From NCBI GenBank assembly GCA_973895155.1, contig OZ316892.1, forward strand, positions 19,727,869 through 19,791,868: a stretch of 64,000 nucleotides of DNA, written 5' to 3'. The stretch comes from Marsupella aquatica. Lineage: Eukaryota; Plantae; Marchantiophyta. The notes beneath the pieces are model-generated. The model worked only from the letters and a program-made list of their open reading frames with translations, was not told the origin of the DNA and searched no databases. Each line of letters opens with the position of its first letter. Position 1 is the first letter of the stretch. This document shows, piece after piece, positions 29,009-57,144 of this stretch. The position numbers and the translations under genes were made by a program.

Positions 29009-29018
29009 AAGGTGGAGA
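29009..29018 (+). other. Polypurine tract
   Basis: AAGGTGGAGA immediately before the 3' LTR. Confidence 0.75.
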
Positions 29019-29019
29019 T

Positions 29020-33613: not shown

Positions 33614-34300
33614 TGCATTCTTTGGTACCTGCCCTCCTATGAAAAAATCCAGGACAATTTCCTCCCTCGAAGAAAATGCATGAATAAAACTCTACAGGAT
33701 GCGACTGGGCTTAATATTCAATGTGAATGGCCGTCCAGTTGTCAATTTGAAAGGAACAAGGCCTTCAAGTCGTGAGATCAATGTGTCCCTTTTTTTCTCC
33801 TGCATATCTTCCTTCAAAATATCAGAATAATCCTCTCGACTTGGCTTGATTGTCTCCTCCAGGTCGGACTCCTCCAACACAAAGTGACCGGTAAAATCCT
33901 TGAAATGCTTTTCCCAATCAGGAACCCGATCTTGGGAGACGCCAAGGAAAAGAACCATGTCCGCATTGCCTCTCATGTGTTGCAAAGGAGCATTAACCAA
34001 ATAACTCATGAACGAACCATATTCAAGGTGCGCATTATAGTTCTCCGGGAGATCTCGAATAGCTTCAATTATTCTTGCAAGAATAATACCAGGACAAACA
34101 AAAAAAACAGCTGTTACCAGATCATTTGTTGGGATATTCACGACGATCTTCAAGAAGTTCAAGATTTCGGACTGCGTCCAAACCGGTTTTCCAGTATGGG
34201 TCAAATCAACAATCGCTAGAGATGCCAATATTGACTCGCAACTAGCCGAATCAAAAGGAGGATCAGCAGATGCGAGCAGATTTCCAGTATAGAATATTCA
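33560..34300 (-). pseudogene. Degenerate beta-class N6/N4 DNA methyltransferase-like domain (outer element cargo)
   Basis: Reading through in-frame stops at 34298 and 33692 gives IFYTGNLL...SLAIVDLTH...KPSRIL*SFIHAFSSREEIVLDFFIGG...ALMLERECFSF, which resembles KP..L...I..FS..GD.VLDPF.G.G....A..LGR. Confidence 0.55.
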
Positions 34301-35044
34301 GTAAGGATCCATCCTTGCGCGGAGATGGACGCCAAACCTCTTTTGATGAATATTTCTCAACCTATTTTTCAGTGGCTCCGGCATCTCTGCTTTTAATGAC
34401 ACCTTCACAAGGCTCTTGAAATATCCAGTGTCCACCATTGCACAACAACGATCCAATTCCTCATCTGTGAAATTATATTGCTGAACTACATCACCCCAAG
34501 TTGATCCTTGCGAGAAAACCCCTTCGTACTTCTCCCGATAAAATTGAAGTATTGCCCCCTTAAGTTTGTCAGTATACTTTGCTTGTCTTGCCAATTCTGA
34601 CATGGCGGGAAGATCAGTCAAAGCATGTTTCTTTTTCATCAAAAGCGCCTCCCCCAAATTCAGTTTGTGGAGGATTTCCAAGATGTTGGATTCTACGGCA
34701 CCCTCAAAAACCCGGAATGTTGTCCCTGTCAACTGTTTTGCTTCTTTCAATTTTCCAATCATTTGTCCGGTTGAATCCAAAAGATTACCCTTGAGCCAAT
34801 TATTGCAAACCTCTCTCCATAAAGAGTAGAGCTTCTCGGGAGCAAACAAAATCCAATTGTACTCGCTGATGCTATTCACCTTTAACGTAACTTTCGCAAG
34901 TGTTTCATACTCCTGGGAGGAAAGACCAAACAACTCAAAGTTAGTCAGCTCAAAGTTTTGAATCCCAAAATACTGGAAAGGCTCTACACGACTCTCGCGT
35001 AGAAAGGAGAGAAGGACAAAGTGTCTGAATTTTGTTCACAACTC

Positions 35045-35600
35045 TCATGGAGAACCAACCTGAAATTCTGGAGATTTCCGACCCGATGGAAGTGGACGAG
35101 CTGGTCGCCCCATATCATTGTATTGCATTCTTGCATGTTTCACTTGGTCAATAAATGGAGATGAAAACCGATGTGCCTCCGCCTGAAGGTGGTTCGCGTG
35201 TGAAATTTCCACAAGAACTTTCACCGGAGTTGACCCTTTGAGAATTTGCGCTCGACGATATTTGAGCAAATTGGCTGTTTGCATGAGAGATGGTTGGGTC
35301 TTTGAACTCCGGATAATTTTCTTGGCGGCCATTGTGGAATGTTGACCACTGATGGCAAAGAACTTGAATTCCGCAAGCTTCTTGGTGTCAATATCCTTTC
35401 CCGCAAGGTCAATTAAACTCGGTACTCCGTCGATCATCTTGTAAGGAACCAAATCTGCAGGTAAAGGTTCTTGCCCTGCATTTGTCATCATCAGTTGCGC
35501 AAGATGGTTGACATGCTCCTCATTGAGGAGTCTCTCATTCATCTTTGCAGGAGGGGGATGGATGTTTTCAACCGGGACAATAAAAAAATTTGGATATCCC
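35045..35600 (-). pseudogene. ParB/sulfiredoxin-like domain (outer element cargo)
   Basis: ERLLNEEHVNHLAQLM...PADLVP...FFAISGQHSTMAAKKI...YRRAQIL matches the ParB/Srx pattern (R...V..L..S...I.DG.HR..A). Confidence 0.6.
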
Positions 35601-38568
35601 GAAACAATACCAAGACTTATTCAACTCCAATGTTTTTTCTGCAGTCTCCAGACGAGCACGGTCGACAACTAGCTTCGCGGAACTAGGGTTCTCGTCAATA
35701 TCCACATCTTCCTTATTTTTCTTTGCTTTCTTGGGCTTGCGAACGACAGCTTGAGAGGTGATGACAACCTTCTTCTCAACGTTTGGGGCCTTCTTCTCCA
35801 CGGCTCTGACCATGGGAGTTTTCACAACAATTTCAGCCGACTCTGTGGTCATCCCTTTCGCTTAGGAGGCTTTGCCCTTGATTCCACAACTACTGATTCA
35901 ACATCAAATTTTGCTTTTTTCTTTCCCTTTGGTGAAGGATCTTTTACAACTCCCTTTCGCTTCAGCGTCCTGATCTCCGGTTCGACCTTTTCAACTTTCT
36001 TCTTGACCGACGCAGATTTCTGTCCAACCCAAGACTTTTGAGACGGTTTCTCCTCCTGAGGTTTTGCTGGTGAAGCGACTTTCTTTGCATTGCTTGATTT
36101 TTGTATTCTGTCCTCGATCCCTTGCACTTCCTCGACAACTTGAATTCTCTTTTGAGAAGATGTTGCCTTTTCTTGTTTATCAACCGGAGATACATTTTTT
36201 CCACCTTTCACTTGAGGCACGACTTCGCGCTGGTTAGAAACAAGAACTCTCTTTCGAGATGGTTTCTTGTCTTCTTTTTGTTCTTCCCGTTGAACCTTCT
36301 TGCGGCCTGTTTTTGCCGCAGGCGGCTCATCTGCTTGATCAACAACTTTCACTCTCTTCCGAGGTAGTTTAGCTTCTTCTTTTATTTTCTCAAAATCAAC
36401 CTTCTTCCGGCCTAGTTTCCCTGATGGTGATTTTTCGTCCATTGCTTTTTTCTTCCCACTGGGTGTGGATGACTCTGACACAACACCAGCTTTCCCCTTC
36501 CTGGGCGAAACTCCCTTTGAAGTCTTTGCGTATCGCTTCTCTGTTGGAGGCTTTGCTGGGGGGATGACCTCATTTTGTTGAATTTCCCCACTCTTGACAT
36601 CATCGTTAATTGGTTCAACTCCACCTTCTAAACTTGTTGACTCTGACTCATTCTCTGACCCCGCCCGATTCTGAAAAGTCTTCTTGCTCTCTTCTTGGAC
36701 ACTTCCCTCCTCTCCGTCATCCTCATTTTTGGACTCATAGACTGATATCGTTTCATGGGACTTGCTCTCTCCAGAGGCGGACGAGTCATCGTTGGAGGAG
36801 TCATCCTCGTCCTTTCCCTCCCCATCATCATTGTCAATCTCTTTTCCACCAACATCTTTCTTCTTTGGGCGTACCAAGTCTTGGATTATTGGATGCCCTC
36901 GAATCCATTCCTCCACCTTTGTCTCACTGAAGTGTTTCATGAACACAACATTTGGAGAAATAGTCATCTTTCTCCTCCAGTCATCGTCTGGGATCTTCAT
37001 CCGCATTATTTGATCCACCTCTCGTGTCCGAGAGATAAAATATTCCGACTGCTTCATGACATAGGAGACCCGTCCAAGCCCCATAATTATTTCATCAGCC
37101 GTAAAGACCCGATCAGGTGAGAGCCATCTATCCGCCAAAGGATCAAAGAAACCGCATGAGACAACATTTGTGTCCTGGTTGTAAGGTTCAAGACAATGTG
37201 CTGAGCAAAACCCATGAAGTGGAGCAACCATCTGCTTGAAATTCCAAGCACTCTCAGACTCCAATGTCAGCAAAAGAGATGGGTTGTCCTTTGGGGACGC
37301 AAATCTTGTACAGTCTGCAAGAGTGCCAAAACTCACAAAGTTTCTTCGTCCATTTTCTGTTTTAACTCCCCTCACAATCAAACGGTAGTTGCCTTTGACT
37401 GGTTGCAATTCAAAAGACCATGAATTCACAGTCGCCAAAATATTCTCAAGTTTTGCGACCGTTGGAGTTTCAATCCGAAGCCTGTCAAAACGGAAATAAA
37501 CAGAGCAAACTCCTAGAAGACAAGGAGAAATATGTCAAACATCTGCACGACACTCGCGTAGAAAATAAAGTGAGCTGACAAACTGTTGCTTCATTATAAA
37601 CAAAATGATGTGAAAACATCCTTTACAAAATGGCCTCTTTGGCGTGTAAATGGTCCGGCAAAAAATGACTATCAGAACTTTGGAGATAGTCTTATGAGCC
37701 ATTTGAGCTCATCATGATTCGGAGTCAAAACAATGTCTAGATTTAAGAAACAATCCAATCCTCTGGAAACATAAGAGTTCCCTAACTCAAAGTATGCGCA
37801 CACATGTGGCCATGAAGGCAACAATTTTTCTTTTCCAATTCAATCCATCGCACTTTGGTATCCAATTGTCTTTCCCTCTCTTGGCCATCAGCCAGCTCCT
37901 GTCGCAAGTCATGAACTTGACGATCTTGAAACTTCTCCATCTCAAGAGAAGCTTTCATGGACTTTGCCGCTACGTCGCAAGTAATCAAATGCTGGATCTG
38001 TGCCCATCGATACTTTGCAAACATCTGCTCCCGTTTGTATTCCATTGCTTCCTTTTCATCCTCCAACGCTTTTTGGAGAATGGAATTCTCCATCAAACTC
38101 ATATCAAATGCATAAATACTTTTTTGTAACAATCCCTCAATCTTCTCAAAATTGTCCTTGCGATGAGCGCCTTCCTCTAGAAAAGTTGAACGAACAAAGT
38201 TACATGAACAATGTTTTGATTCCATATGGTACATATGAACGAGGATTCTACACGACAGTCGCATAGAAAACATGAGTTTCTACACGACAGTCGCGTCGAA
38301 ATCCATTATCTCCAAGATTGGAGAATCGGTTCTACGCGAGACTCGCGTAGAACTAAACAGGAAATTCTAAATTTTGACATAACGGCTCTCAAATAGAGAC
38401 TATGGGTCGATGAAAGAGACCCATTCTACACGACTCTCGTGTAGAGTAGACTCAAGTTTACCACAATCCATTGAAAATAGAGAAATTTAGGTCAGAATTA
38501 CCTTTGAGCTTCCTCAATGCAGCGAGAGCAAGTAATCCGGCGTCATTTTCTGCCAAAGAAGTCGTCAT
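35568..38568 (-). pseudogene. N-terminal exons of the outer cargo gene (coiled coil, globular region, long K/E/D low-complexity linker)
   Basis: Putative ATG at 38568. The GT-AG intron from ~38501 to ~38178 joins in frame to the coiled-coil ORF 37782-38273. An acceptor near 37481 leads into the 529-aa ORF. Frameshift near 35850. Confidence 0.5.
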
Positions 38569-39390
38569 TCCCTTCGCACGTGCGAACTCCTCCATGATAA
38601 TGTCAAGGACCGACTAGTTGAGCGAAAACAAATAGAAAACACAAATGATCCAAGGTCCGAGGTCCTTTTATACTCCAAGACGAGCATGAAAGAGCGTATC
38701 GTCCGAGGGGAGCGTGAAAGAGCATATCGTCCGAAGCGAGCGTGAAATGGCGTGAAACAATCTGAGGGCCAAGCGTGAGAGAGAGAGAGCGTGAGAGAAA
38801 GAGAGAGCAAGAGAGAAAGAGAGAGAGCAAGAGAGAAAGAGAGAGCAAGAGAGAAAGAGAGAGAGAGCGTGATTGAGAGAGTTAGACAATGAGAGTGACA
38901 GCGAGCTGGTCGGAAAGCAACATATATCGGCCCCTTCCGCGTGGAATACTGTCAAACAATGATTGCGGTTGCTACCCGGCCGCCAAACCTGATACTCGGG
39001 ACGTGTCACTAACATGGCGAACCACCACCCACCGCCAAACCAATCTGCATTTATGGAAATGACTGCTCACCACACACCACGCCGCCACAAAAAAGTACTA
39101 CACGACAATCTGGTAGAGTTGAATGTCTGAAATTCTTGCACCCCCACTCACTATATAACATGACAGACCACTTTGTGCAAGTCATTTTTTGAGACCTGAC
39201 TCATTTGTGCCTTCAGTCCGAGGTGGGACTGTCGTTAAAGCGTGCTCAGTTGTTTCAGGTACTGCATTGGTACAGTTTCTCGTACAGTTTTTCTCCTGTC
39301 ATTTTCAATTTTGTTTTAGTGATTGTGTCAGTATGTGAATGCATGTGCTTGAGTCTTTCCCATTGGGATGTGGTTTAACTGTATATTTAG

Positions 39391-40095
39391 TAGTAATCTC
39401 TATTGAATTTTGGACTTTTGATTTGCTACACGAGTCTAGTGTTGTTCCCCTGGTCTATCTAAATACAACATTCAATACAAAGTTCCTCAGATAACAAGAA
39501 TACTCATTTCAGAATATCCATCTCTCTATAGAAGTTTTAAGAGCCTACGAGTGTGTATTCAGTAGTAATCTCTATTGAATTTTGGACTTTTGATTGTCTA
39601 CACGAGCCTCGTGTTGTTCCCTTCGTCTATGCAAATACAACGTTCAATAGGAAGTTCCTATAAGAAGAATACTCATTTCAAAATATTCATCTCTATATAG
39701 AAGGTTTAAGAGCCTACTAGTTTGGATTCAGTCGTAAACTGTATTGAATATAGGACTTTGGATTGTCTACACGAGCCTCGTGTACGTTGTTCCCCTCGTC
39801 TATCCAAATACAACGTTCAATAGAAAGTTCCTCTAAGAAGAATACTCATTTCAAAATATGCATATCTGTATAGAAGGTTTAAGAGCCTACTAGTGTGGAT
39901 TCAGTCGTAATCTCTATTGAATATTGGAGTTTTGGTTGTCTACACAAGTCTCATGTTGTTCCCCTCGTCTAAGATACAATAGAATTTTCTATTTAATGAA
40001 AGAACCTTCAACTTTGTCGATGATTGTCTCCATTGCTTGTTCTGTGATATTTGCTTAGATTAGAGTTAGAGATTTTCACATGAGCCTCGTGTAGG
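39391..40095. repeat. ~172-bp tandem repeat (about 3.5 copies), each unit carrying the outer-element palindrome
   Basis: Units start at ~39391, 39564, 39733 and 39905 (TAGTAATCTCTATTGAATTTTGGACTTTTG...CTACACGAGCCTCGTGT). Confidence 0.85.
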
Positions 40096-40143
40096 CTGTT
40101 TTAAAAGATGTTTTTGTTGCAAATATTTTTCCTCAGATCCAAA

Positions 40144-41160
40144 ATGGCTTCAAGAACGCAGCTTCTACCTGGAGAAGTCGTTCACCTGCTTATCAATGAA
40201 CAACCAGTTGCTGGTGGAAAGGTTTTTTGTGTTCTACCTTCCGACACCTGCCACTCTGTGTTGCTTGGAGCAAAACGGATAAGTGTGGCGGTGGACAATG
40301 CTTTCTTTCACCTTGAACAGCTGCCGTATCCACATGCTGGAGCTGATCTAGTAGGAGAGTCGGTGAACTCCATTGTTTTGTGGGATCGGCAAGATGTCCG
40401 CCATGCAAATGACATGAATCTTGGAGGTCAAATAGAGTCAGCTTATGTCATTGATGACCCAGTTGACAATATTCAAGGTAATTCTGAATCAGCCATCGGA
40501 CTGGAGGGGACATAGGTTTTTGCGGAGGATTTGAAAGATCGTAGCACATGGTTCAAGAAGTTTGCCCTTCTCTATGCGGACGACGGAGAAACCTTGCTCG
40601 CAAGAGGTTGCATCATAAACCCACATCCTCTCGCGTCCATTAACAACGAGCGAGTTGGGGAAGATCATGTTGGTGTGAATATTTTGAGTCTAGCTATTGA
40701 AGCTGGCTTGGGAAAAGTTCTGTTCCCTCAATTTGTTGACAGATCACCATGCACAGTTTGATGGCCAATCAACAAAACTAGGATTGAGCCTAGAATGGAA
40801 TGTCTGAGTGATCTTTTAGATTGGAATGATGGTAACGATGAGGGAGTTAGAATTCTCTCATATATCAAGCCAAAAAGGGGCTATAACAATCAACGAAGAA
40901 ATCCTCAATCTTGATTCAAACAAGAAGGAGAGAAAACAACTCGAGAAAAGACGCAATCAAAAGATGTCTCGAGTGTCCATAGATACTCTTTATCGGGTTG
41001 ATTGTTGCTCACAGAGTTGTTGTCGACGACAACTCCGTGAGACCGTCACTGACATTAGGGCCCGCATTAGGGAAGAGTACTATGGTCTATCTCATGTTGA
41101 GCAACATACTTACATGCTCAATCATCTTCACTGTCGTGACGATGAAACCATCGCCTCAGG
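40144..41160 (+). pseudogene. 5' part of the outer transposase (two Tnp1/DUF8039-like repeats, then a Cys cluster)
   Basis: MASRTQLLPGEVVHLLINEQPVAGGKV...LPYP...IVLWD, a second similar repeat, then DCCSQSCC...EEYYGLSHVEQHTYML. In-frame stops at 40513 and 40759, plus a frameshift. Cut at the TSD. Confidence 0.65.
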
Positions 41161-41642
41161 GGGTATAACCACCGTGCTAGCAAATAGTAAATAGATATTC
41201 TCATACGAGCCAATTTTGCCTCGTACAAGAAATTTTTTGTCTCGTACGAGTAAACAAGTTCCTCGTATGAGCATATCTATTTACTCGTACGAGTTTCTGT
41301 TTTCTTGTATGAGTTTCTATTTTCTTGTATGAGTATTTTTTTTTCTTGTATGCATTTTAGTTTCTTCTCTTCACGGTATGTAGCGTCCATATATGCAATA
41401 ATTGTGTGGACAATATTATGGTGGGTCCCACCATTGTACAACATTAGAGGAAATTTCTCAACGATTTCACACAAGGACTCCAATATATTGCCACAAAATA
41501 TGAAGTCGAAACAAAGTCATACAATACTAGCGCCCGACGCTAGTATAGTATTATACAAAAAAACAACACTTTAAGAACTCACACTTCTGCCCATTAGAAA
41601 AGACAAACTACAATTGTAGCTGTTCAACGATCAAGCAACAGT

Positions 41643-44600
41643 CTACGTTCTCGTTCCCAACTGCCTATCAAGTATGTAACGGACTTCTCCCAACGTTAGA
41701 ATTGGCTGGCTACATAATGTTGATTCGAGCACATCCAGTTTGAACACATTCTTGAACACCCAATACACATGTTTGCAAGGCATGTAAGGCTTCCGATAAG
41801 TATGTCGACGGTAGAAATCCTCGCAAGAGCAACATGGGAAACAACATATATGAACCCAATAAGAGGCGACTGATCTCTCATGTTCATGGGTCCGGATACA
41901 AAATTGTTTCCCTGACGCATTTCCACTCGTGATCACTCTCTCTCCAATGACGCTCATCACTTCTTTTTCAGAGGCTTCAATTCTCTTCAAATGTGTTTGG
42001 GTAAGATGCACTCTTTGCAAGCATTTTTTCCCGTTCCTTGAAGCGTACCTCACAGATGGGTCAGTTAGGTTTATCCTCTCCAGGAAAAGATTGACATCAA
42101 TCTGTAACGCAGAAGGCAACGGTGCTTCGATTTCATCTCCACAGCCTTCGGAGAGAATAAGTCCTTGTTCTTTCAAAAATTGAATCTCTGCTCCAAAAAG
42201 ATTGGTCCCTTTGGCAATTGGGAGATGTGAAGGAACATTGGGAATGTTCGAGACTCCTCTCCTTGTTGTGCTTCGGTGACAGTGGTTGTTGGGGCAAAAC
42301 CATATCTGATCGTTATAAGGTTGCCCCTAAACATTCTACATCCTCTCACGGAAATTGCAACAACACCATCTGGATTCGGAAGACCAACCTTCTTTACTCG
42401 ATTTTGACATTCATCACGACTACCTCCCCGTCCAAGGGTTCTGTTACACACTGGACCCGCACCCCGTTTTGAGGTCCGACGCAACTGCCAGGCACCGGGA
42501 GGTACTTCACTTTCCATTGGGGAAACTGAATGACAATATGCAGTCTCGACAGGTGTTGCAGGCGTCACTGGTGGGACAGAGGATCTCGTTGCTCGACGCG
42601 TAGGTGTGTCAATGACCACAACTTCCTCAGAAGCATCGCTTTCTGACAAATTATGGACCGCATCAATTCCACCGGCTGAAGGCGTAGAAGGCATTTTCTC
42701 AAAATCAGTGGAATGCAGGTTTCTCCTTTTCAAACCTTTTGTATTTGGTGAAGTAACAAGGATGGTATCATGCCTGTGCGAGTCTTCTGCCGAGACGTTC
42801 CCAGTTGCATGTCCTTTTCGTTTCACCGATTGAGTTACAACATCACCATTCAATGGAACGCTTCTTTCCAAATCAAACTCAGCAGCGTTCGACAGGAGGA
42901 GATTGGTGGCTTCCTCAAAGAGACGCGGTGACCCCGCCAGGTCCGCCGATCTGAAGGCAAGCTCAAAAATAGTTGGGCCAGTTCCTTTGCTCAATCCCCT
43001 TTTGTATGCAGTATAAGCAGCAATTTGAGCAACCGCTCTATTTTGGTCCGTTTTACATCCTTCAAATAGACCAACCTTTTTTTTTCTGTTGCCATGCTTT
43101 CATTCCAGCATGCCTAGATTCCGAACCAGTACAATTAGGAATCATCCCAGCCTCTTCGGCACTCTTGCTTTGAAACGTTGCACGCAAGGGTTTAGTACAT
43201 GTAAGAAATTGCACACAAAAGTGGCAACACAATGGAAATAACAGTAGCGCCAGACGCTAATAAACTGATGATGATATTTCCATGTAAAGAACCGTTTAAC
43301 ACAGAATAAAGGTAGTCCTTACATCACTCATAGTCCAAATGGATTATTAGCGCTCGGCGCTACTATTGCAGATAAGGAACCCTTCTATCTCACACATGCT
43401 TCACTAGCGCCGAGCGCTATTAATGGGAACATGCATCCTATAGAAGTGTATAACTCACCAGTCTTATGAAGTTCCCCCATTGTCTCCATCGGACAACCCA
43501 CCAAGACAGCCACCCTTGCAGCATCCGAAGTTTGCCTGAGTGACAATTGCCAGACCTCCACCAGTCATCGATTTCCCTAGAGATTCGATATGCTTTCAAG
43601 AAAGTTGGCGCGTTCTGAAGACGATCCCACATCTCCTTGTGCTCTCCGTGCTTTCCATCTTTTACACCTTCTCGGGAATGACAATGAAAAGATTGGAAAA
43701 AATGAAAGGCATCTGATCTTTCTCGCTCTGGGTCGGGTACACCGTCAAAGAACACGTTTTGAACAGCATTCCAACCAGCCTGAGCATTGTCCGCCATGAA
43801 TCCCCAAATTGTAACATCCTGTAAACCATTTTCATCGGCAACCTCTAACATCAAACGCCAGGCTCTCTCCAGAGATTTTGCATCTTTGGCCTTTAGCTCA
43901 CAAGTGAATATGGTGCAAAGTGCCCGGTAATGATGATCATATACATGGGCACTGAAAGTAAGCCAATCTGCCGTGCTTCGATGCATCACGTCAAAACTTA
44001 CCCATGAACCCTCTAACGACCCACCAGGTTTCATTCTTTGGAGCAGGTCCAGACCACTACCGTCATCTTTTACGGTCATTTTAAAGATATGAGCACTCTC
44101 ATCCCGATAGCCTTGACCAGGGAGCAAGAACCTATGAAGAAAAGGTAGTCGGATACACTTTTGCATCCTCACAAGAAATTCCAGTTCCCCTTTCCCCTTC
44201 TGATCTTGACGGACACTCCTTAACACGGATGCAAACTTCTGAGGAGATGCGACGACCATCAGGGACTCCCAGATTTCCTTCTCTTCTTCAAGAGAGATTT
44301 CTTCAACAGAGGCCTCGCAAAATGTATTCGTCAGTGTCTCAGTCGTAGAGTTTTTAATCCCTGCTTGGGATGCCATGGGGTTTGCAGTGAATCCCTTCTC
44401 CAGATGAGACTTTGCAACCTTTTCTGCCTCCCTCAAAAAGACCCGTCGACTGGGATGATTGTGAAATCCCATAAGAACAGCTAGTCGCGACATGTGGGCC
44501 AAAGACTTAACGTCAACTTTTGCAGATGGATACATGTAGAACATTAGAGCAGGGCAGGCCTCAACGCACATCAGAGGTTCGGAGCAATGGTGACAAACAA

Positions 44601-45498
44601 CTCCACCTTCGAAGATCAATTCCCCAACTCGGAATGGGCCCGAAAGTTTTGGGGTTCTTGCCCACATCTCATTATTTCGAAAGTTGTTGTCTTTCCACCA
44701 CGGACAAGCATTATTTTGACACTGCAGCGATCCCGTACACTGGACTTTCCCGAAATCCCACATTTTCTTCGGAAGAACATTTGAAGACGTTTTCACAATC
44801 CGAGTCCAATAATAACAATCCTTACCACGATCCATATCTTTCAAACGTTCACCTTTTGCGTTCACACAGTCTACCGGGGGTAACTCAAAAACCACATTCC
44901 CATTGTAAGATGTGGGAAGACTAGGCACTACGTGATGAACAAAATCACTCCCCCTTATAAACCGAGACAATTCACTATGACCTTTGGATTTCAAGATTGT
45001 ATCCATTGCACTCTGCCGGTACACAGTCAAAGGCACAATCATTTCTCGATCCGCATTAGACTCCTTTTTAACCTCGGATGGGTAAACTGGAATCTTCTCT
45101 CCGAGAGTAGTTGTCGCTTGCTTATCATCTCCAGAACTTTCCGAGAGTTTGATGACATCGAGTTCAGCCACTGTGGGAGGACGAGTATAGGAGGCCCCAG
45201 AATCTCTCAAAACAAAAACCTCATATTCTTTCTGAGCCTCCAGAGTCCAATATCTTAGACCATGAACAACATCGTAGAAAAGTGGAGTCTCCCCCAAACA
45301 AACCGACACTAACGGCGAGATCGCTAAAATAGACTCCTTGGCGACATCAAATCTCACTCCCAAATATTCCTCTAAAACACGCTTTGATTCAGATGATTCG
45401 AGGACGGGAATTGTGATTACATCCAGAGTGTCCTTCCTTGTGACAACGATATTTTGAGCCATGGCTTCAAAAGAGGGATATGCATTTGCCCCACGCAA
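41643..45498 (-). pseudogene. MULE-type transposase: GCM/WRKY-like Zn domain, DDE core, C-terminal SWIM finger; spliced and frameshifted
   Basis: CTGSLQCQNNACP...CHHC...GFHNHP; WVSFDVMH (D1), FMADNAQ (D2), DAFH at the CxxH position. After an intron (~43455-43175) comes CTGSESRHA (E). SWIM: CSCEDF...PCKHVYWV. Confidence 0.8.
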
Positions 45499-46184
45499 AA
45501 TGAAATATGTTTATCATGAGATTCGAGTACGAGAAGTAAACGTTCCATTCTCATTATAGAGTCGTTATAGATTGGACGCACTCCATCAATGACGTTTTGT
45601 CGTCTTACCAACGGCAGGATTCGGGTTCATAGTTACTAGCACCTGGCGCTACCTCTATGTGTAAAACACCCTTGGATGAGGACTACGAATGCCAATAATA
45701 ATAGCGTCTGGCGCTACCTCTGGGTGCAAACATTCTTGGGTGAGGAGTACGAAGGCAATAAATAATAGCGCCTGGCGCTACCTATTTCAATGGACTTGAA
45801 AACATTCAATGGAAGGATAAGTACGACAACGCAATACAGTACGAGTCATTAAGTTGGCACGCTTTAAGATCTCCACTGGATCTTCGCGAATCCGATCCGT
45901 CCGGGTCCAAATGTGCCAGAGAGGAAGCGTCCACGAAAGTTATATCAGAGGGTCCTCTTCGAAGTGGGCAGCCAGGACCAAGTGCAAACTCTCCTTATAT
46001 CTAGTCGTTCTCCTCCGATGTCCTCATTGTCAAGCCATTCTTTACTGAGTCGCAGTTGTGGCTCATCTTTCGGGCGCGTGGTTCCCGTTCTCGCATTCGG
46101 GCCCAGTTGTTCTTTTTGGCTTTCGTGCGCGTTCTTGTTCTCCTTCTCGTCCTCGTTTCTCATTCTCGTCCTAGTTCACTTTCA

Positions 46185-49100
46185 ATGGCACCTCCACAGG
46201 GAAAGGCAAAGGAGGAGGCACTTGTCCCGAGTGACACCGACCGGGAGACCCCCGCATCAAATAGCTTACCGCCTCGGGACGAGAGGATGACGGTTCCAAT
46301 CTCGAAGAAGGGGAAACTCATCTCAAAGACGAAGAATGCCCCAACTATGGGACGCAGCAAAGGATCCAGTCGGCCAAATGCGAGCGGCCCAACTTCTGTT
46401 CCCGCTAGGGATATCGCCCATGCTTCAGTCGGCCGTCCAAGAGCCGACACTATCTGCACGGGAGTCTCCGTATCTTCTTCATCCACTGAGAGTGATCGTT
46501 CTTCGAGCGGGGACTCATCACCGAGCAGGCAAGGATTTGCGTGGTATGGATCGAGCGACTCGAATGACGACTCTGATGCGTACAAGCCAAGTTGGTGGGA
46601 AGACTGATTTCCCGGTGTCAGAGCGTCTCGTTTGAGTGCTGGAGAGACTTGGAGGATCCATCGAGGTTGATAGGATCTAATTCCACTCGTTTTTTTCCGT
46701 TACAAAACACATACCGTTCCTTCCTCGTATGTCGGATTTCTAGTGTATTGTAACATTTTGTATATGAACGGCACAGCCGTTCATTTTTACCCCGGTGTCA
46801 ATGCTTTTGAATTCAGAAGACCAAGCTTTAATTTTGGGTTCTACTCCCGTGTTTGCATTGTATTTCTGAATGCGAAACTGATCTATTTCTTTGAAATGGC
46901 CATAAACACTCGTTTGCTGTCAATGTTTTTACTAGCGTTTGGCGCTATTATGACAAACAAAGTGTCCATAACACTGTCGTGACATTTCTTATCTCTAAAG
47001 TGTTTTTGATAGCGTTGGGCGCTACTAATGAAAGGAATCACAAGTCAGACCCGTTTGGAGTTATTTTTACTTTTATTTCAACAAAGTCTGTTCAATTGAT
47101 GTGCATTTTAATAGCGCCAGGCGCTATTGTAATTCATTGGAATATTCGTTGAATGAATGGGTTCATGTGGTCATGTTTGTTGTCATTGGACTCCTATTTC
47201 ATCATTTATTTGGATACTAGCGCCAAGCGCTACTAAAGTTGGCTTGTTGACTCCTGCACAAAATTGGAAAATTTATAGACACTTGTGTTGATAGTACTGT
47301 CCGAAGCTACATTAAGACGGTTTTTCAGATACATTTGAAAGTATGTTGTATAATAGCGCCTGGCGCTATCCACAACTATCGACATTGATGTGGTTCCAAC
47401 GGTCACTTTCCAACGGTAATATTATAGTAGATTGAGGTTCACGGAACCCTTTTTGCTTTTGTCTGGGATGAAAGTCCAATCGGAGAATGCCATCTGTACT
47501 TGGGATTGTTGTAATCGAATGGCTGGTTCCAATGTATCGGTGTCTTAATACGAGGTGGAGATCGCTCGTTTGGGATAATTTAGTCCGTCTACGCGCTCAG
47601 ACCTTGGACTATATGAGTTTGTCAAGTGCATATGTGCGTCCTTTATTGGTCCCGTACATTTTGAGACGTGATCGTGACAAGAACTGCACGGCGCGTCCGG
47701 CAGTGCCTTTGGTCGAGTCGCTCTCCATGGCAACTTTTGGCTGGGTGATACGAGAATGGGGGAGGCTGATGGTGGTCATTTTGAGTCCTCTCAGTCTTCG
47801 TTCGCTGGTTCAGTATACACCCGTCGTGTCACTCGATCGACTGCATCCCTGTCGACTTCCGAAGCTGAATCTGCACAGCCCTTCCCGAGGTCGAGGAGAG
47901 GGAGAATGGACCCTAAGGACGTCTCCATGGGTGAAGTCAGTGACATAGGCTTATCGATAGACGAGGTAATATCAAAGCACGCATTGTCGTTCGGGAAGGA
48001 TTTTTGAGGATTCGATAAGGAGCCACCTCGAATTCCTCTTTGTAGATTGCTCCCCATGGAGGTTGTTCGAACCTTACAGAAAGAAAGTGCATCGATCGAG
48101 AAGTTGAAAGAATCATTCCGTGTCACCGGGTACAACTCGCGCATTGGGATGCCTTTCTACGTTCAGCCTGCGAATGCCGATGGGGTTTCTCAGATATGCA
48201 CCAGCAAGATCCGGGACTCTTGGGATCCAATTTGGGTCGTAGAAAATGACAAGTTTGAGGAAGAGTGTGATGCGGACCCAACATTCCATATTCTAAAAGA
48301 TAAAATGTTTTGTGTGTTTGACAGAAATCATCGATTGTACTCATGGTCAATCCTCACGAGGGAGAATCCGAACAACTTGAAGTATCATCCTCGTGTGATT
48401 TGCGTCATTTTCAATGGTGACAGAGGTTCGCTAGTTGAGCTCGAGGCGGCAATGCACACCATGAACCAATAAGTTCTATTTGTTAACTGTTGTTACCCCT
48501 GTCATTCATTTTGGACCAAACATGCTTTGCGAAAGTGTTCATTCCCCAATTTTTGCTAGCGCCGAGTGCTACTAATTCCTTTTCATTGCATCCAGGCTTG
48601 GACAAGCAGTCGTCGAGCCTTCCTGGATTCTTGACGCGGACAGAATTTCCCGAATTTTGTCGCGTGATCTTGATCACTATAAGCCACTCATCGACAGCGT
48701 GAACATGGCAAAGTTTGAGGCGATCCGAAAGAAGACGAGAAAGGGGTCTTGGTTTACACATAAAATGCCACAGGATGCTCTCATCTACATTCTGTGTGTG
48801 GACAAAATCAAGTCTTACTCAAATCAATTTAAGTCTGATATGGCTTTAGCCAAAGCTCAAGGGGCTTCTTGGTCAGAAAAGGAGACCACAAAGAGGCATG
48901 AGGCAATGATGAAGGAGGCGACCAAAGATTGGTCGATCAAAGTGACGAAGATCACCCCTTTACTTCATCCGGATTTTGGAGATTATTTGGGAACCTATGC
49001 TGAGATGTATCCCGTAACTGAGAAGAACAAACAGGAGAAGAAGCCAGACACAGTTGTATGCACAATGGATCGAGCCAGGTTGTTTACTGCTGTTTCATAC

Positions 49101-51497
49101 CTGGATCCAAAATTGAGGTGCACCCTTCTAGTAGCCCACTGCACTCCCGAGATTTGGAAACAGTTTTTCCATCCTGCAAGTGTCAACGACGAGCCTGTGA
49201 AGCAGTGGTGCCATACATGGCATACTTGGAATTCTGTGGAGGGAATTGCAACTGGAATGCTTCACACTTCTTTCAAACAGATTTCTGACCGGATGCCGGC
49301 TGACCGTCTCACAAAGTCTGGGTGTGAGTCAATGGAGGCCATGCTTAAGATCATTCTAGATGAATTCAGAAACTTTGGGGATCTTGTCAAGGCAAAATTC
49401 TTCAACAACTTGTGGCCTTCCAAATATGCGGACAAGGAAGATTACACAGAGCGGAACCGGAAGAGAGCCAAACGATATCTATACCGGTTTTACATGTGGA
49501 TGGAGCTTAGATCTCCTGACACTCTGTGGGCATACCCGGCTGCATTTCAGAAATGGGTGTCTATCGAAGAGGGAGACGCTCTTGCCGACCTGTATTCGAT
49601 GTACCCAGCGGAGGGAAAGTTTCCACCACGTTCATTGTCGGAGTGGGAGAGACTTTGTTGTCCGTGGTACCTCGACACAGACAAATGGGATTTACCGTTT
49701 GACGAAGCTGAGAAGGATGCCTTCATGAAGTTGCAGAAGTCCCAGATCCCTGCCAACTATGTGTCTGCAATGAAGCAAGGTCTCCAGTCTGATGTTGACG
49801 AATCTGCATCTGAGTTACAGAAGAATTGTGAGTCTCTTGTCATGCACGTTGACCGAAGCCGTAAGCCAAGAGCAAAGGCGAAGAATGAGTCGGCTGCACC
49901 AAGTGACTCCACAAGGTCCTTCAAGAAAAGTGAGTAGTCTAAGCGCTTTTTGGTTACTTGTTGGCGTTGCTTATGCAGGAGTTTCATTTGGAAATTCCTT
50001 TGATTAATAGCGCCTGGCGCTAGTCTGAAAGGTTGGACTCATTCAAGTTTCTGTGCCTAACAGGAGGTCCCGGCTGCCGAAGGGAAGAATGATGCAACTC
50101 CTCAGGCATCGGAGGCAAACACTGGAGCTCAAGAAACCCCGGATCAAGGGACCCCGGATGGTGCTGGCAAATCCATTGTCCCTCTTGACGCAACTAGCAC
50201 GAAGAAAAATAAAAAGAGAGGCGCCGGTGAGGATAGAGCAGCATCATCTACTCGAGACGTTATTTCCTGTGGACTCCAGAGAGATGTCGGGAATTTTAAG
50301 CGAAGGTGTTCTAGACACTGTTTTGTGGAGTCCAATTTAAACGAATTTTACGATTCGGTATTTAACAAGGGGATGAAGCCCATGTGGGTTACTAAAGTTG
50401 AGGCCTGGGGAAAGGAATTGGTAAAGTCAGGAGACAGAGAGAAGGGAGTAATGCATGGCGGAAAAGAGAGGGGCTTTGGTGTGGATGCTGGTTTCATCTA
50501 CATTCCCACTGGATTAAAACCAACACTTCTTGATCGGAAGATTCCCAAGTGGAACCTTCAGGATTACACTATTCCCAGCTCTTTCTTCCGAGCCATGGAG
50601 CCGTTCCTTGCAGACGATGGCCTACTTGCAATTTTACACAGAGGAGACTATGATCAGGTATCTGAAGTGATTGCGGCTTGCCAGGATTCTAAGTGTTTCC
50701 AGTGTATTTCAACCCACCATGTGGTCATGACTACACCAATGTATAGGCCCCGATCTGATACTCAGGTAACAATTCCTCTTGCACATACTAGCGCCCGGCG
50801 CTACTATCAGCATTCGCAATATCTACAATTCACTTATCTTTCGTAAGGATGAATGGTTGACTAGCGCCAAGCGCTAATATATGTGTATGTTTTCGTATAC
50901 TGCCTTCATTGGGAAACTGTGTTGCAGATATTCACACTTACTCTTAATATATTTTGCCGCATTTTGACAAAGGGAAGGGTCCCGAAAGACCCCAAGTTCC
51001 GGCCACTATCGAATGAAGAAGACCCTTCCGTCACTAACATTATTGGGTTTTCGTTGCCGCAACATGACCCGACTCCTGAGCTCCAATTTGCAGGAAATTC
51101 ACGATTGCCTGTGGGTTTCATGCAAACTATTTTGGAATTGGTGACTCTTCCTGGAGATATCGTTATGGACTGGACAGTAGGTTCCGGTAGTACGTTTGTG
51201 GCTGGAGATTATTCTGGTCGCTTTGTTGTTGGGCTGGAAAATCGGCCAGAGTTTGTTGATACTTCCGGTAAGGTCTTCCTTGATCTTTTACAGAACAAAG
51301 AAGTGGTTGCACCAACTCCTCCTAAGAAGATTCCTGGAAGTAAGAAGCAGGACAGGCTCCGTGCTATTCTAAATTTTGATTCGGAAGACGAGAATGAGGG
51401 TGGCAATGCTTCTCAGCAATCTAAAGATGATGAGGTGTCGAAGAATGTGGTGGACCTTGGATCTGGAGATGAGGACAGTGAAGAGTCAGAAGAGTAA
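46185..51497 (+). pseudogene. Spliced ParB/Srx-like plus beta-class N6/N4 DNA methyltransferase fusion gene (MULE cargo)
   Basis: ParB-like IPLCRLLPMEVVR...IEKLKESF...CVFDRNHRLYSW (48020-48470). MTase-like VDAGFIYIPTG...FLADDGLLAILH, then LPVGFMQTILELVTLPGDIVMDWTVGSGSTFVAGDYSGRFVVGLE. Introns at ~46670-47430, ~48470-48594, ~49931-50062 and 50766-50927. Stops at 46605 and 48005. Confidence 0.75.
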
Positions 51498-52271
51498 TTT
51501 TCTTTAGCTTTCTTTCTCTCATTGTATACTTTTTTCCAAAAAACTCCTCTACTCCCTTTTGTCTAGAAAATTCGCCCGATTTCCCGACTTCGACTAAAGA
51601 ACTCCAGTTCAAATTCTCAGGTCAGAGTAGAATCTTTGGAGGCGTTTTCAACTTTGAAGGAACGTCTCTAGGAACGTTGTACAGACCCCGGAGAAGCCAT
51701 TTGTTCTCCCCTCTTATGCTGAAAAGGCGGCACGACGGGCAGATTCAGTCAGGACGCTTACTTGGGAGAGTAAGGGTCTTAGACTCAGGAGAGGCTCAGA
51801 TAGAAAGTTTGTGCAGAATCACTTCATAGATGATATTGCAAAATCCAAGTATGTGGACGACGAAGCAGAGTCCACTGATAGATCAGAAAGTAGCGGTTCT
51901 GAATCGGGCTCAGAGTCGAGTGGTGGTTGTGGATCTGGTCTTTAGTTTTCCTTGTTTTATTTACCCGTTTATGGAGAACGACAACACTCAATAAGAACGT
52001 CGTGACGTGTCGGATTGGAGTAGCGCCCGACGCTATTACTGTAGCCGGTAGTTCAAAGAGGTTTTTATTTGGTTGTTTTCCTTATAGCGCCCGGCACTAG
52101 TATAAATGTACTCAATGGCCGCTTCACATCCAATATATGTGACAATATTTTCATACCCTTTGGTGTCTTTTTTGGGTGCACATTTGCTGGTATGAGTTTT
52201 GCTGTTTGCTGTTTACTGTTTGTTGTTTGTTGTTTGCTATTTGCTGTCACGGAGAGATCCCCCGCCTCAGG

Positions 52272-54576
52272 CATGATTGTATTCAAGGGAAGCAAGATCT
52301 GCAAGGAAGCTTTCTGGAATATTAATGGATTTTCTCTAGGAACATTTTACACAATGTATTCACGATACATGGAGGGGGCAAAAGTTGGTGTTCATGGGAA
52401 TGAAGGGACCATCAAGACCAAAGACTACGTTGTGTTGTTCACAGAATCAATTCAAAGTATCCTGCATAAATGTGCAGAACCAATGCCACATCTTCACAAA
52501 ATTGGTGTTTCAGGCAAGCAGGAAGTTGTTTTCAGGGTTCCAATAAGTTTCGGGAGAAAAGATGTTTTTGAAGAGGCTTGCAAGCTTAACAAAAACCTGG
52601 GTATTCACTCGACCTCTCTCCCAACCTTCTACAAGCTTTTGGATAAATATTTCCCCAATTTCCAATTCCAAGATCGGAGCAACTTTGCAAAATGCGATCT
52701 CTACACGACCATTAAAGAAACACTTCGGGGGGAGAAACGGGTGGATAAGATTTTAGAAATCAAGGCAAAGTGCGAACGGCATATGTTGGAACAACAATCA
52801 CGCAGGAGTATGTACTATGCAGCAAAAATTGCGGCGGACCAAGAGCCCAAAAAATATTTGTCTATGATTCACGATAAAATGGATCAGGCCAAGACCGGAA
52901 TCCCTAAAATGACTTCTACACTCAAGAGCCAAGGAGGCAAATCAATCCCGCTACCAATGACGCTGACGGGGATGTTAACGCATGGATGGGAGCCTGGAAT
53001 TTATGCACATTTTGCCCTTTCTGGTTTGTGGGCAAGCGATCCTGATTTTACAATCTCTTCGCTTGCAAAGTTATTTCGTGATCTCAAATCATTTGTGGGA
53101 GATAAGACCGACGATCTAGCTCTCAACACCTCTGACGTCATAGATCCAATCTTTGTATCCCTCTTGGATCGGCGTGCCTTTGAGGTAGGATACCTCGAAA
53201 CCAAAAAGATCTCTCTCGCTCACTTCGTAGGGCTTGGTGACTCACACGAGAGTCCCGTAGAGCCTTGAACATTGCTACCCTTCAAGGCGCTTCCTCGAAA
53301 CCTCCACCTTCAACTTGATAACTCGGGAAAGGATTACAAGAACCAGACATTTCTGGCTTTCTGTAGCGAGCTTGTTCTAAGAGGAGTGTTTGAGTCAGTA
53401 ACTCTTTCCTTTTTGATGGTGGGGCACACTCATGAGGATGTGGATGCCTTCTTCTCTAGAGTCGGGATAAGGATCTACAATTGAGAGCTTACCACATTTT
53501 TTGGTTTGATGGCGGAGGTTTGGGAGTGCGAGAAGAAACATCCGGTTCCAAGGTTCATCCGCGAAGTTGCATCTTACAAAGCTTATGTAGGACCATTTGT
53601 CAAAAGGATCCAGGGTCAATCAGCACCTGTTCAATTCTTGTTATCAATGAAGGAGAATGTCCCAGTCTACCAATATCGAGAGAAAATTGATACGCCTTGG
53701 CTACCGAAAAAGGGTCAAACAATTTGGTTGTTTGACTTAGAGAGAAACCAATACAAATTTCCAATTGGAAGTCCTTATTCCAAGCGGATGGAGTCTTCTC
53801 ACAAGCGAGCGAATCACATTTTGGAATACTTGATCCATTATATCTCATGGCTGAAGACTGCATGGAAGGATGTTACATCGGAGGGATATCGTCTCCGAAG
53901 TCCAGAGATTCAATACTGGGAAAACATTGTTTTTGTGTTTCAGGACACACTTTGCTCTCCTTCGCTAGCAGGGGTAGATTATCCATTACTTGATGGATTC
54001 TGGCCTCGAACGAACCATGGAACTGGGTATCGTCAGGATGGTCAGAACGTGGATACCAACCCAAGCGAAGACAATGGGGTGATGCATAATCTGGAAAGAG
54101 AGCTTCAAGAAGATGAAGAAGAGAGGCAAACAATCTTTGTCTGACACCCTTCTGAGCGTGAGAGGTCAAGATTTAGTCCTCTAGAAGATATTAAAAAGAA
54201 TACATTTGTTATTATTCGACCCACCGATGAATTTGAAACCAGAATTCTGCAACGATTTTGGCTTGCAAAAGCAATCGATTGTGTCGTAAGAGATCCCGAC
54301 GATTCGCATGTTGGAGAGTTCCAAGTTGAATGGTGGCGCCCTCTTAATCGCAAGAGTTTGGCAACCGAATCAGAAAGATATTGGGACTACTTTAATTCAA
54401 AGCAAACGTGGGAAAGGGATCCCAATTACCTCATTCCCCCAGTCACAAATGATTGGATCCTAGCAACTTCAACCATCACCGGATGGACATCAAAAGCAAA
54501 AGCAAAGGTAAAAGTTCCAGCAAGAGTTTTGGAAAGTGTGAAGGTTTACATTACAGAAACGATTGAAGAGAACTAA
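52272..54576 (+). pseudogene. 3' part of the outer transposase (Sola1/DUF7869-like RNase H-fold DDD core and C-terminal beta domain)
   Basis: ICKEAFWNING...HGNEG...FAKCD...MIHDKMDQAKTGIP...LHLQLDNSGKDYKN...SFLMVGHTHEDVDAFFS. In-frame stops at 53266 and 54142; frameshift near 53480. Confidence 0.75.
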
Positions 54577-54620
54577 AATCCTTTCTCGACGCAAGACTCG
54601 CGTGGAAGACACTTGGTGAT

Positions 54621-55350
54621 GCACGGCACGTCCTAATTATGTCGGGTTCAGGATTGTGGGAGAACAATAGGCGAGGTTTGAGCTGGTGTCACTTTCCGCA
54701 TGAGGCTCGTGTAGGCCGGATTACTTAGCTCGAGGATCATTTTTTGGAAAGTGAAAGGTGTGTACTTGTACTCAATGTCATATTCACTACAATGGCGCGC
54801 ATGTCAACCTTTGGCTCGTGTCCATTGTGGCCACAATGATGGTTTGGTGCCGGATCACAAGATTTGGGTGGGATGAGCTCAATTTCCTCCGTTATTGAGG
54901 TTAAATTGACAGGTGCTTTTTTATCATAATTGTGCTACACGAGGCTCGCGTAGGATGTCATAATCAACTTATGACTTGCAAAACCCGGATCTTATCACAG
55001 ACACCCATATCACACGGCATGTACTAATTGTCGGGTTGAGGACTGTGGGAGAACAATAGGCGAGGTTGGAGTTGGTTGGTTCCATTCACTTTCCGCACGA
55101 GGCTCGTGTAGGCCAAACTACTCAGCTCTAGGATCATTATGACCTTCGGAAAGTGAAAGGTGTGTACTTGTACTGAATGTCACTTTCACTGCAATGATGC
55201 GCATGTCGACCTATGGCTCGGGTCCATTGTGGCCACAATGATGGTGTGGTGTCGGGTCACGGGTTTTAGTATCATAATTGTACCATACGTGGCTGGCGTA
55301 GGATGTCATAATGAACTTATGACTTGCAAATCCCGGATCTCATCACACAT
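54621..55350. repeat. Two-copy tandem duplication (~390 and ~340 bp) near the presumed right end of the outer element
   Basis: CACGGCAYGT.CTAATT..GTCGGGTT...CCCGGATCT.ATCACA starts at ~54621 and ~55012. Each copy holds two palindromes. Confidence 0.8.
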
Positions 55351-57144
55351 ACCTTTATTCGAGAGGCTTGTTTCTCTCCTTCAAGTTATGCTTTGTGATG
55401 AACTTCTGGCTCAGTCTCCAACATCTCTCTGATCAAATCTCCTTCTGATCAAATCTTCCTTTTCCAAATTGAGCGTTTGACAACCATTTTGGATCGTGGT
55501 GATTTTCCTTAACTTTCATAATGGCACCTGGGAGACAATTGAGGAGTTCTTTGGCATTACATACGGAGGAGAGTTCTAGAGCATTACACGCAGAGAATGC
55601 GAATGAGGAGCGGTCCAACTTCTCTGTGTGCCCGGAGCCATCCGATAGTTTCGACTCTAGAGTTGCTGCAAGAACAGAAACCATTCCTCCTCTTGGCAAC
55701 CAAACTGTGGTTAGTCATGACAAGACGAACGACCAGGCACCTGTTGCACATGAGGTGGAGGAGGAACAGAAAGAGCAAGAGAAGAAGCCGACAAAGGCCG
55801 TGGAGGAGGAACAAACGAGGATCCGTCGGGAGGAATGCATGTCGAAAGATGAGGCGTCGTTGGAAGAGGGAGCATTTGGCTAAGTATTACGGACCTTTGA
55901 AGAAGAAACGAAGCTCCGAGAGAAGTCTGAAGGAATGGGCAAGGGAAGAATTTCTAGATAGCGATAATGCGTACTCCGACAAGTGGATGCCATCATCCTA
56001 GAATGATTGAATGAGGCATTCTGGAGTCAGCTCTCGGGAGGTGTTTTGGAGCTGTTTTTTGTGCGGATGCGATCATCGCGTAGGAATTTGTTAGTTGATC
56101 GTGCATTGTGTTTAGGTCACTAGAAGAAAACCTGTGTTTTACTACTACAGGCCCTGCAACTACTTTGCCTAAATAACTCATACGTGGTGCCAACCACTAT
56201 TTTTTTAATGGGTTGTAATAATCTGCATTTTATTACTCTACTTAGAACTATGTTACCTTAATCACTGATTACAACTCTCTTTTTTGCCACTAAAACTTAA
56301 ATCACTTGAATTAGAGTTGTATATTACACAAATTTACAAATCACTACAATCCACCGTTCACTCCACCGTCGATGTTTACAACTCTATTTTCAACTAAGAT
56401 TTTACTACTGACCGAAACCACTACAAATACAAGTACCACCAATATTTGAATGGTAAAGGTGCTTTTTCAATCAACTCCCAATCAAGTGAAGCTTTTCCAA
56501 GTGATCTTAATTACTTGAAATAATGTCATTTGTGAGCACACCTTTTGTTACTGTAAATATCACCAATAGTGGAGTCACAAAAGAATTTTGGCAAAATTAT
56601 TTAAAATATTTTAGTGACAAGGAAATTCTTACAAACAACTTAAGATTGAGTGAATTAATTCTCAATGTACAAAATTTCTTTACATAAAGTCATTATTATC
56701 ACAAATTGTCTGACTACAAATATCACTAATATTAGAGTCCAATAAATATTATTTGATGCAACTTCAAACCAAGTGCCACATCCTCCTTAGTCCAAAATCA
56801 CTCTAAAGAATGTCATTCTCTTCGCACATTTTAGTGACTCCAAATACCACTAAGAGTAGAGTGTCAATGCAGGACCTTGCAAATGACTTGAAATAAAGTA
56901 GATCATTTTCCATTCTTAGAAATCACTATGAGTAATGTCATTCTTTAAATACATTTTGCCACTGCAAATGCCACCAACATTAGAGTGTCAAAACAGTTTT
57001 GATAAATGACTAAAAATTAAACAGATTATTTTGTGATGTCCAAAACCTCTCCCCATGGTGTCATTATCAACACACATTTTCAGTCACTATATGCATGCCG
57101 CCGGAATTATAGCGACAAATAATTTATTTTTTTTACAAATTGTA

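Follow-up and report, generated by a model that had tools for sequence, protein, structure and literature searches.

A stretch of 64,000 nucleotides of the liverwort Marsupella aquatica (contig OZ316892.1, positions 19,727,869 to 19,791,868; hereafter the window) is eukaryotic and rich in repeats, as seen from a copia element and an F-box kelch gene, and contains two nested elements, the inner of which is likely a Mutator-like element (MULE). This inner element carries a cargo gene of four exons and about 1,100 codons, in which a ParB-like part is followed by a methyltransferase-like part of the beta class. The position of the catalytic motif IV reads YIPT, and this non-canonical motif is the state of a whole family, a real and apparently undescribed group of pseudo-methyltransferases borne by bryophyte transposons. 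The parts of the cargo gene are as follows.

47756..48468, plus strand: exon 1, with the ParB-like domain at the N-terminus and an uncertain start codon
48005..48007, plus strand: in-frame TGA just upstream of the ParB-like domain
48320..48334, plus strand: ParB box II, DRNHR in the window copy and DGNHR in the family
48469..48595, plus strand: intron 1, donor AT in the window copy and GT in the family, palindrome at 48557
48596..49929, plus strand: exon 2, middle region of about 445 amino acids without a known family
49930..50082, plus strand: intron 2, acceptor uncertain, palindrome at 50008
about 50064..50765, plus strand: exon 3, linker and N-terminal half of the beta-class domain, motifs III to VII
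50499..50510, plus strand: motif IV position, YIPT, family consensus x-L-P-T
50766..50927, plus strand: intron 3, GT-AG, palindromes at 50789 and 50862
50928..51497, plus strand: exon 4, motifs X, I and II and an acidic tail, Pfam N6_N4_Mtase

Intron 3 is secure, since it appears as a 54-residue insert relative to the spliced proteins of Calypogeia and occupies the same position in these proteins and in L002, a locus of the family obtained from metagenomes. Spliceosomal introns, proposed in a preliminary description made from the letters of the window, were supported. Exon 4 matched Pfam N6_N4_Mtase above the cut-off (E 5e-8), with PGDIVMDWTVGSGST from 51150, motif I (DWTVGSG) at 51168-51188 and motif II (GLE) at 51231-51239. 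The donor of intron 2 at 49930 is strong; the acceptor at 50063 is out of phase with it, and the one in phase, at 50082, is weak. No frameshift was found at the exon 2-3 junction in the majority contigs of X1 and X2, the two runs described below. The end of exon 2 matched the Riccia protein P0117 (E 8e-5 within a small protein set), and more weakly P0102 and P0080 of the same genus. Since P0117 carries this exon 2 end before a fused methyltransferase-like domain, exon 2 and the methyltransferase-like domain would belong to one protein.

The state of motif IV in the family was read at two levels. At the closer one, public contigs of two runs (X1 and X2) were compared with the window copy at 95% identity, and the main contigs of both runs kept YIPT (X1 record 8, X2 record 16); those lying over 50499-50510 departed from the window by one letter each, at 50455. 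At the wider one, 114 proteins were retrieved by HMMER from 1.84 billion representatives, and the 41 that covered exon 3 were aligned with the window copy, giving 42 rows; four rows gapped at motif IV were dropped, leaving 38 readable. The family profile 'DliFialPt' was aligned to 'DLIFADPPY' of CcrM in a sub-threshold stretch, and hhalign against seven canonical hits gave the same register (probability 98.2%, E 3.5e-14, 206 columns). Both comparisons place x-L-P-T on DPPY, as the preliminary description had supposed when it found YIPT where (D/S/N)PP(Y/F) was expected. The first position was occupied by Y (11 rows), A (11), F (7), S (4), C (3), R (1) and T (1), with D or N in 0/38; L was found at the second position in 30/38 rows and Pro at the third in 35/38, while the fourth was T in 27 rows, N in five and Y, F or W in none. 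The consensus over the 38 rows is therefore x-L-P-T and not DPPY-like. It was common to sequences 25-64% identical to the window and from at least three bryophyte genera; the nearest named relatives were Calypogeia fissa proteins (36-41% identity), and the family was also present in a moss. Because the main contigs of the family and its close relatives share the non-canonical motif, YIPT is a family state and not the product of decay.

A second pattern, with the Asp kept and the aromatic lost, was observed in named members at a greater distance: Riccia sorocarpa contributed eight of them (DLPS, DMPS, DMPT, DPPT) and Ceratodon two (DAPE). The pattern D-[LMPA]-P-[STE] held in 10/10 of them, an additional row (P0099) being unreadable. 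Altogether, the aromatic residue was absent from 48/48 readable family sequences (38 close and 10 of Riccia and Ceratodon). In a 48-row tree of the N-terminal half, in which ten comparison rows were treated as prokaryotic from their architecture, the family formed one clade (100/99) and the rows keeping Asp fell outside the Asp-less group. This placement suggests, not firmly, that the aromatic was lost first and the Asp second. UniRef gives four Riccia members (P0075, P0080, P0102 and P0117) the name 'Trimethylguanosine synthase', which is probably wrong and assigned automatically. Five further proteins (P0064, P0073, P0079, P0095 and P0101) had beta-class domains in tandem, two or three each, with a mixture of SPPY, DPPF and DLPY motifs, and one of these proteins had a long N-terminal region fused.

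The fold itself appeared to be preserved. The AlphaFold2 model of the Calypogeia homologue P0003 (36% identical; 80-row alignment) contained 229 residues with a predicted local distance difference test (pLDDT) score of at least 90, whereas the single-sequence fold of exon 3 reached a pLDDT of only 31. The top structural matches of the P0003 model were beta-class enzymes, with CcrM at Z 19.0 (root-mean-square deviation 3.5 A over 227 residues), and rotifer N4CMT ranked below the bacterial enzymes (Z 17.0, 9% identity). In the comparison with CcrM and other beta-class enzymes, Foldseek gave E 1.6e-13 and the identity was 9-17%, and the BFVD matches were N4/N6 methyltransferases from phages and giant viruses. 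The Rossmann methyltransferase fold was thus present in the predicted structure, and the beta-class assignment of the preliminary description agreed with this model, with the hhalign comparison and with the Pfam match of exon 4.

In contrast to the fold, the pocket for S-adenosylmethionine (SAM) was only partly kept. In motif I, Asp was found in 47/51 rows and Gly in 39/51 and, at the last Gly, 45/51, and the motif II acid in 44/47. The HPxxKP stretch was eroded, with Gly at the His position in 38/46 family rows, a contrast that is partly circular, as the 18 comparison rows were chosen by eye and partly on HPxxKP. The motif III Asp position, located by eye, was Ser in 14/23 rows and Asp in 0/23. 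In N4CMT, the SAM ribose is bound by a His, and these pocket residues touch the cofactor (PMC10406627). Within motif IV, the first residue is the catalytic base and the last the stacking residue (PMC7544214); the Ser and Tyr of N4CMT position and stack the target base (PMC10406627; PMC7544214), and the change of SPPY to APPA kills this enzyme (PMC8885841). Of the clear SAM-binding motif announced earlier, motifs I and II stood, whereas the His before motif X and the motif III Asp had been replaced. Because motif IV is lost and HPxxKP and motif III are eroded, catalysis and canonical base flipping appear unlikely, and SAM binding by the cargo protein is uncertain. The base flipping once suggested for the family is doubtful in view of the missing stacking aromatic. 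On these grounds, a methyltransferase fold without catalysis is very probable.

Apart from the family state, the window copy bears lesions of its own. In X1 and X2, each represented by a single contig, position 48323 read G over the full depth, which makes DGNHR the family state and bears out the single G>A change proposed for DRNHR; likewise, 48469 was G at full depth in both runs, so the GT donor of intron 1 is the family state. Relative to the majority, the window copy showed G>A or C>T at 22/29 differences in X1 and 19/25 in X2. Deamination of methylated cytosine gives such changes. As loose contig ends show, the copy is also short of about 21 bases near 50063-50069. For the TGA at 48005-48007, which may be specific to this copy or family-wide, no differing row was seen among those family contigs that may cover it. 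Because of this TGA, the AT donor at 48469 and DRNHR, the window copy of the cargo gene is dead. The preliminary description had offered decay and pseudo-enzyme as a choice, but both hold, the copy being decayed and the family motif IV non-canonical; it had overlooked the TGA, the AT donor, the out-of-phase sites of intron 2 and the DPPF of the outer gene discussed below.

The cargo gene was overlain by 366-1220 contigs per run in 4/4 runs, with similarity from above 99% to below 90%, and therefore belongs to a multi-copy family. Its setting comprised the following features (strand is given where it applies).

41152..41160, plus strand: left target-site duplication, CGCCTCAGG
41161..52262: inner Mutator-like element, 11,102 bp, without long terminal inverted repeats, delimited by the flanking 9-bp duplication
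41161..41188, plus strand: left terminal inverted repeat, short and degenerate, pairing with 52236-52262 (20/28 columns identical)
41528..52099: palindrome TAGCGC-N3-GCGCTA, 18 copies, all outside the coding spans drawn
41643..45510, minus strand: putative Mutator-type transposase, multi-exon, from open reading frames (ORFs), with a SWIM-like Cys/His motif at the C-terminus
46185..46607, plus strand: short low-complexity ORF from the ORF list, without a family in the Pfam scan
52263..52271, plus strand: right target-site duplication, CGCCTCAGG
32006..35620, minus strand: ParB-like/methyltransferase-like/Ulp1 gene of the outer element, with GQHS, DLTH, DFFIGGQ and in-frame stops
32007..55110: outer palindrome TACACGA-N3-TCGTGTA, 15 copies

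When the inner element and one copy of CGCCTCAGG were deleted in silico, the frame of the outer DUF7869 gene was restored. The ORFs at 41643..45510 gave no MULE, SWIM or other match in Pfam, nor a match in NCBIfam, and are presumably a transposase, a label that we base on the 9-bp duplication and an assumed resemblance of motifs. A target-site duplication of 8-11 bp is a Mutator trait (PMC6446971), and the 9-bp CGCCTCAGG falls within this range. The cargo gene lies inside this transposon and so is not the resident eukaryotic gene that the preliminary description had supposed. The left end of the inner element occurs a second time from 63193 (63193-64000, 95.6% identical, ending at the window edge), and in its left subterminal part (41186-41345) an imperfect hairpin of 100 bp is accompanied by repeats of words resembling CTCGTA[CT]GAG, another short palindrome type.

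Elsewhere in the window, a copia-type retrotransposon occupies 23008-29313, and its two 294-bp long terminal repeats are identical, which indicates a recent insertion. A 44-bp perfect inverted repeat with a 33-nt loop at 29873-29993 is followed by TGGTATCAGAGC, which we take to resemble a retrotransposon primer-binding site. A tandem unit of 703-705 bp is present in about four copies at 57140-60043, and host-like single-ORF genes identified by the Pfam scan lie at 19921-21927 (a gulonolactone-oxidase-like flavin adenine dinucleotide protein) and 1037-2275 (the F-box kelch protein).

The two palindrome patterns were spotted by eye within the window and then counted. With up to two mismatches, TAGCGC-N3-GCGCTA was found 19 times where 0.37 would be expected; 18 of these lie in the inner element and the remaining one in its second copy. 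All 18 of the inner copies were non-coding, non-coding DNA making up 35% of the element (p about 6e-9 if the copies are independent; some are local duplicates), and each of the three introns of the cargo gene held one or two. Mismatches within the six-base arms were C>T or G>A without exception, and the palindrome at 48557 was perfect in the majority contigs of the family. The outer palindrome (0.03 expected) was absent from the inner element, and 13/15 of its copies fell outside the ORF spans used. The nested elements each have a fusion gene of the ParB-like kind, and their palindromes differ and do not overlap.

In the region 30867-56001, the outer element comprises, besides its fusion gene and palindrome, a transposase-like gene with DUF7869, which the inner element interrupts (40105-41160 and 52272-54576), and a NIF-family phosphatase ORF at 31151-31756 on the minus strand (Pfam E 9e-13). 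Its tandem units of 170 bp (39380-39971) and 400 bp (54622-55353) contain several of the outer palindromes, an arrangement similar to that of VANC motifs within tandem repeats. In its own fusion gene, the Ulp1 protease was matched at E 5e-29 (Pfam) and the ParB-like part at E 0.034 (PHROG), and the methyltransferase profile was matched weakly, over motifs X-I alone (E 0.003, probability 9.6%). This part is far more eroded than that of the inner gene, the second Gly of motif I being gone too. DLTH had been taken as the outer motif IV, with no mention of a DPPF 19 residues ahead of it. Measured from a motif-III-like Gly placed by eye, DLTH lies at 26 residues and DPPF at 7, most canonical hits being at 20, and because of this spacing DLTH is the likelier of the two, within a weak profile match. 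The inner and outer cargo proteins were also tried as one close family and rejected (best blastp E 0.3; family profile probability 0.8%).

With respect to the N-terminal part, exon 1 scored 0.95-0.96 against clusters of the Atlas, a comparison by language-model features; the second cluster was 11% ParB_N, and DUF3723 and a nameless cnidarian cluster were also among them. Literature on DUF3723 and ParB yielded general ParB papers alone. Because of these scores and of the restored GxxR of box II, present in the family as DGNHR (majority of X1 and X2), exon 1 is probably a ParB-type domain, in support of the earlier label. Phages often carry ParB-N6_N4 fusions, and sulfiredoxin is the sole common eukaryotic ParB fold named in the accessible part of the same source (10.1101/2025.10.10.680097). 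A phage ancestry of the cargo gene is plausible because such fusions are common in phages.

Several known systems resemble parts of this configuration. The phage and prophage fusions likewise have a ParB-like domain N-terminal to a beta-class domain, but the cargo gene differs from them by its spliceosomal introns, its length of about 1,100 amino acids with a middle region of 445, its lost motif IV and its location on a plant transposon. CcrM and other beta-class enzymes share the fold and the motif order IV-target recognition domain-X-I, whereas the cargo family is without (D/N/S)PP(Y/F/W) and has an eroded HPxxKP. DN4MT1 and N4CMT are also eukaryotic beta-class domains of prokaryotic origin; in contrast to the multi-domain cargo gene with YIPT, both are active genes of their hosts and carry SPPY, DN4MT1 being described with TSPPY and no extra domains (10.1101/2021.02.12.428880; PMC8885841). 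This comparison of motifs and domains, not of trees, does not support the relation to liverwort N4-methylcytosine (4mC) methyltransferases once suggested, beyond the fold, and we infer that the cargo family arose independently of DN4MT1 and N4CMT. Inactive amino-methyltransferases have precedents in METTL14, MTA9 and the DIRS1 domains, one of them on a transposon (PMC7544214; PMC4738411); these belong to the MT-A70 and PCIF1-like group 2 clades, and neither a ParB domain nor a palindrome array is reported for them in the accessible parts of these sources. A survey of adenine methyltransferases mentions ParB-linked clades in algae, inactive DIRS1 domains and few in land plants (PMC4738411), and the accessible part of PMC12344493 held nothing on the cargo family. 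No description of it was found in the literature searched, a coverage that leaves out most subscription journals. Word-index searches for homologues returned none, whether started from exon 3, from exon 2 or from the methyltransferase-like piece of the outer gene, and say little, as HMMER found 114; an Atlas search with exon 3 gave leads all below 0.9, and a metagenome scan returned nothing with the window protein and three loci with the alignment, one of which (L002) was a family member.

The closest functional parallel is provided by VANDAL elements, which are also of Mutator type, with short degenerate ends, a 9-bp duplication (PMC6446971) and an accessory gene, and whose element-specific short motifs in non-coding DNA are comparable to both palindrome arrays found here. 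Their VANC protein binds short family-specific motifs in introns and intergenic DNA of the Mutator element that encodes it, and strips methylation from the whole of that element (PMC5735166; PMC10398659). VANC has DUF1985/DUF287 domains, for which no Pfam match was found in any exon of the cargo gene, and recognizes non-palindromic 8-9-mers in tandem repeats. The inner element presents instead a ParB part with a pseudo-methyltransferase and dispersed 15-bp palindromes, and an anti-silencing role would extend to it by analogy.

The explanation preferred here, which we hold to be evenly poised between right and wrong, is that the cargo gene encodes an accessory ParB-pseudo-methyltransferase whose intact protein is predicted to bind the palindromes of its own element and to regulate or shield that element. 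A phage-type ParB-methyltransferase fusion would have entered bryophyte DNA transposons and lost the stacking aromatic and later the Asp, while the fold and part of the SAM pocket may have been retained as a scaffold for DNA binding or dimer formation. A dimer is proposed because the site is two-fold and because known ParB and beta-class domains form dimers; it would recognize the two-fold palindrome as ParB does parS. From its intron and intergenic sites the protein might occupy the element and oppose host silencing by 5-methylcytosine, as VANC does for VANDAL. A bolder version, which we regard as unlikely, is that unrelated types of bryophyte DNA transposon took up a phage-derived ParB/parS-like system, in which a nucleotide-gated ParB clamp loads at the element-specific palindromes and spreads over the entire element, the dead methyltransferase fold that it carries shielding the element from host methylation.

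A number of points weigh against the preferred explanation. Most relatives are exon fragments known without their transposon context, the fold was modelled on P0003 rather than on the window copy, and the Asp-less clade has a support of 92/71, with long branches meeting at the root. Exon 1 had no ParB match in Pfam, PHROG, NCBIfam or PDB, so that the ParB label stands on Atlas similarity and the DGNHR motif; there are phage ParB partners for which CTP is dispensable and which have no DNA-binding domain (PMC13229309). The one-protein model leans on the Riccia relatives, the exon 2-3 splice being ambiguous in the window copy, and the pairing of palindrome and gene is known from two elements in one window.

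The strongest competitor, possible but a good deal weaker than the preferred explanation, accepts the pseudo-enzyme and assigns the palindromes to the transposase or another element protein, leaving the ParB fusion as a scaffold or chromatin partner. Transposases can be sequence-specific regulators themselves, and that of AtMu1 alone activates cognate copies (10.64898/2026.08.24.746577). As both elements have a transposase-like gene, the exclusivity of the palindromes suits either binder, and exon 2 had no match in Pfam or NCBIfam and no DNA-binding domain that could be identified. The palindromes are, however, dispersed over 10.5 kb and in introns, not placed at the element ends, and the two transposase-like genes are unrelated, yet their elements share a site design (arms starting with TA, a 3-base spacer) and a ParB-like fusion.

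A methyltransferase that is still active through the retained SAM pocket, by an unusual chemistry or on an RNA or protein substrate, is improbable. The intact fold and the motif I and II residues counted above would favour this, as would the Ser, a canonical first residue, in 4/38 rows and the Asp of the Riccia and moss members. Against it, Y, A, F, S and C at the first position have no common chemistry, the aromatic at the fourth is gone, the SAM-ribose His of N4CMT (PMC10406627) aligns with the Gly of 38/46 rows, and the outer gene also lacks the second motif I Gly.

Somewhat more improbable still is an inactive, substrate-recognizing partner of an active beta-class enzyme in the manner of METTL14 and MTA9, which at the element would recruit a host enzyme, for example the 4mC methyltransferase of liverwort sperm, or block it. 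Beta-class enzymes act as dimers whose members divide the work, and motif IV is eroded in METTL14 (PMC7544214), the active liverwort beta-class 4mC enzyme targets CG (10.1101/2021.02.12.428880), and the palindrome contains two CG per strand; nevertheless, the element has no gene for an active partner and the family occurs in a moss too. Plain decay of a once-canonical methyltransferase, now functionless, would suit the G>A and C>T excess, the TGA and the AT donor of the window copy, but is very improbable and largely refuted by the x-L-P-T common to sequences 25-64% identical and by the conservation of Pro3, motif I and the intron position.

These findings have consequences for both the annotation of bryophyte genes and the understanding of their transposons. 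Many bryophyte proteins labelled 'DNA methylase N-4/N-6' are without the catalytic motif, and they are to be left out when writers of 4mC or N6-methyladenine are counted. If true, the clamp version would place a parS-like loading system inside a eukaryotic nucleus and would be a second case, independent of the first, of sequence-specific anti-silencing. Transposon escape from silencing is known mainly from VANC of Arabidopsis and TnpA of Spm, and liverworts and mosses may now offer a candidate of their own, built from bacterial or phage parts, which comes with a predicted palindromic target site.

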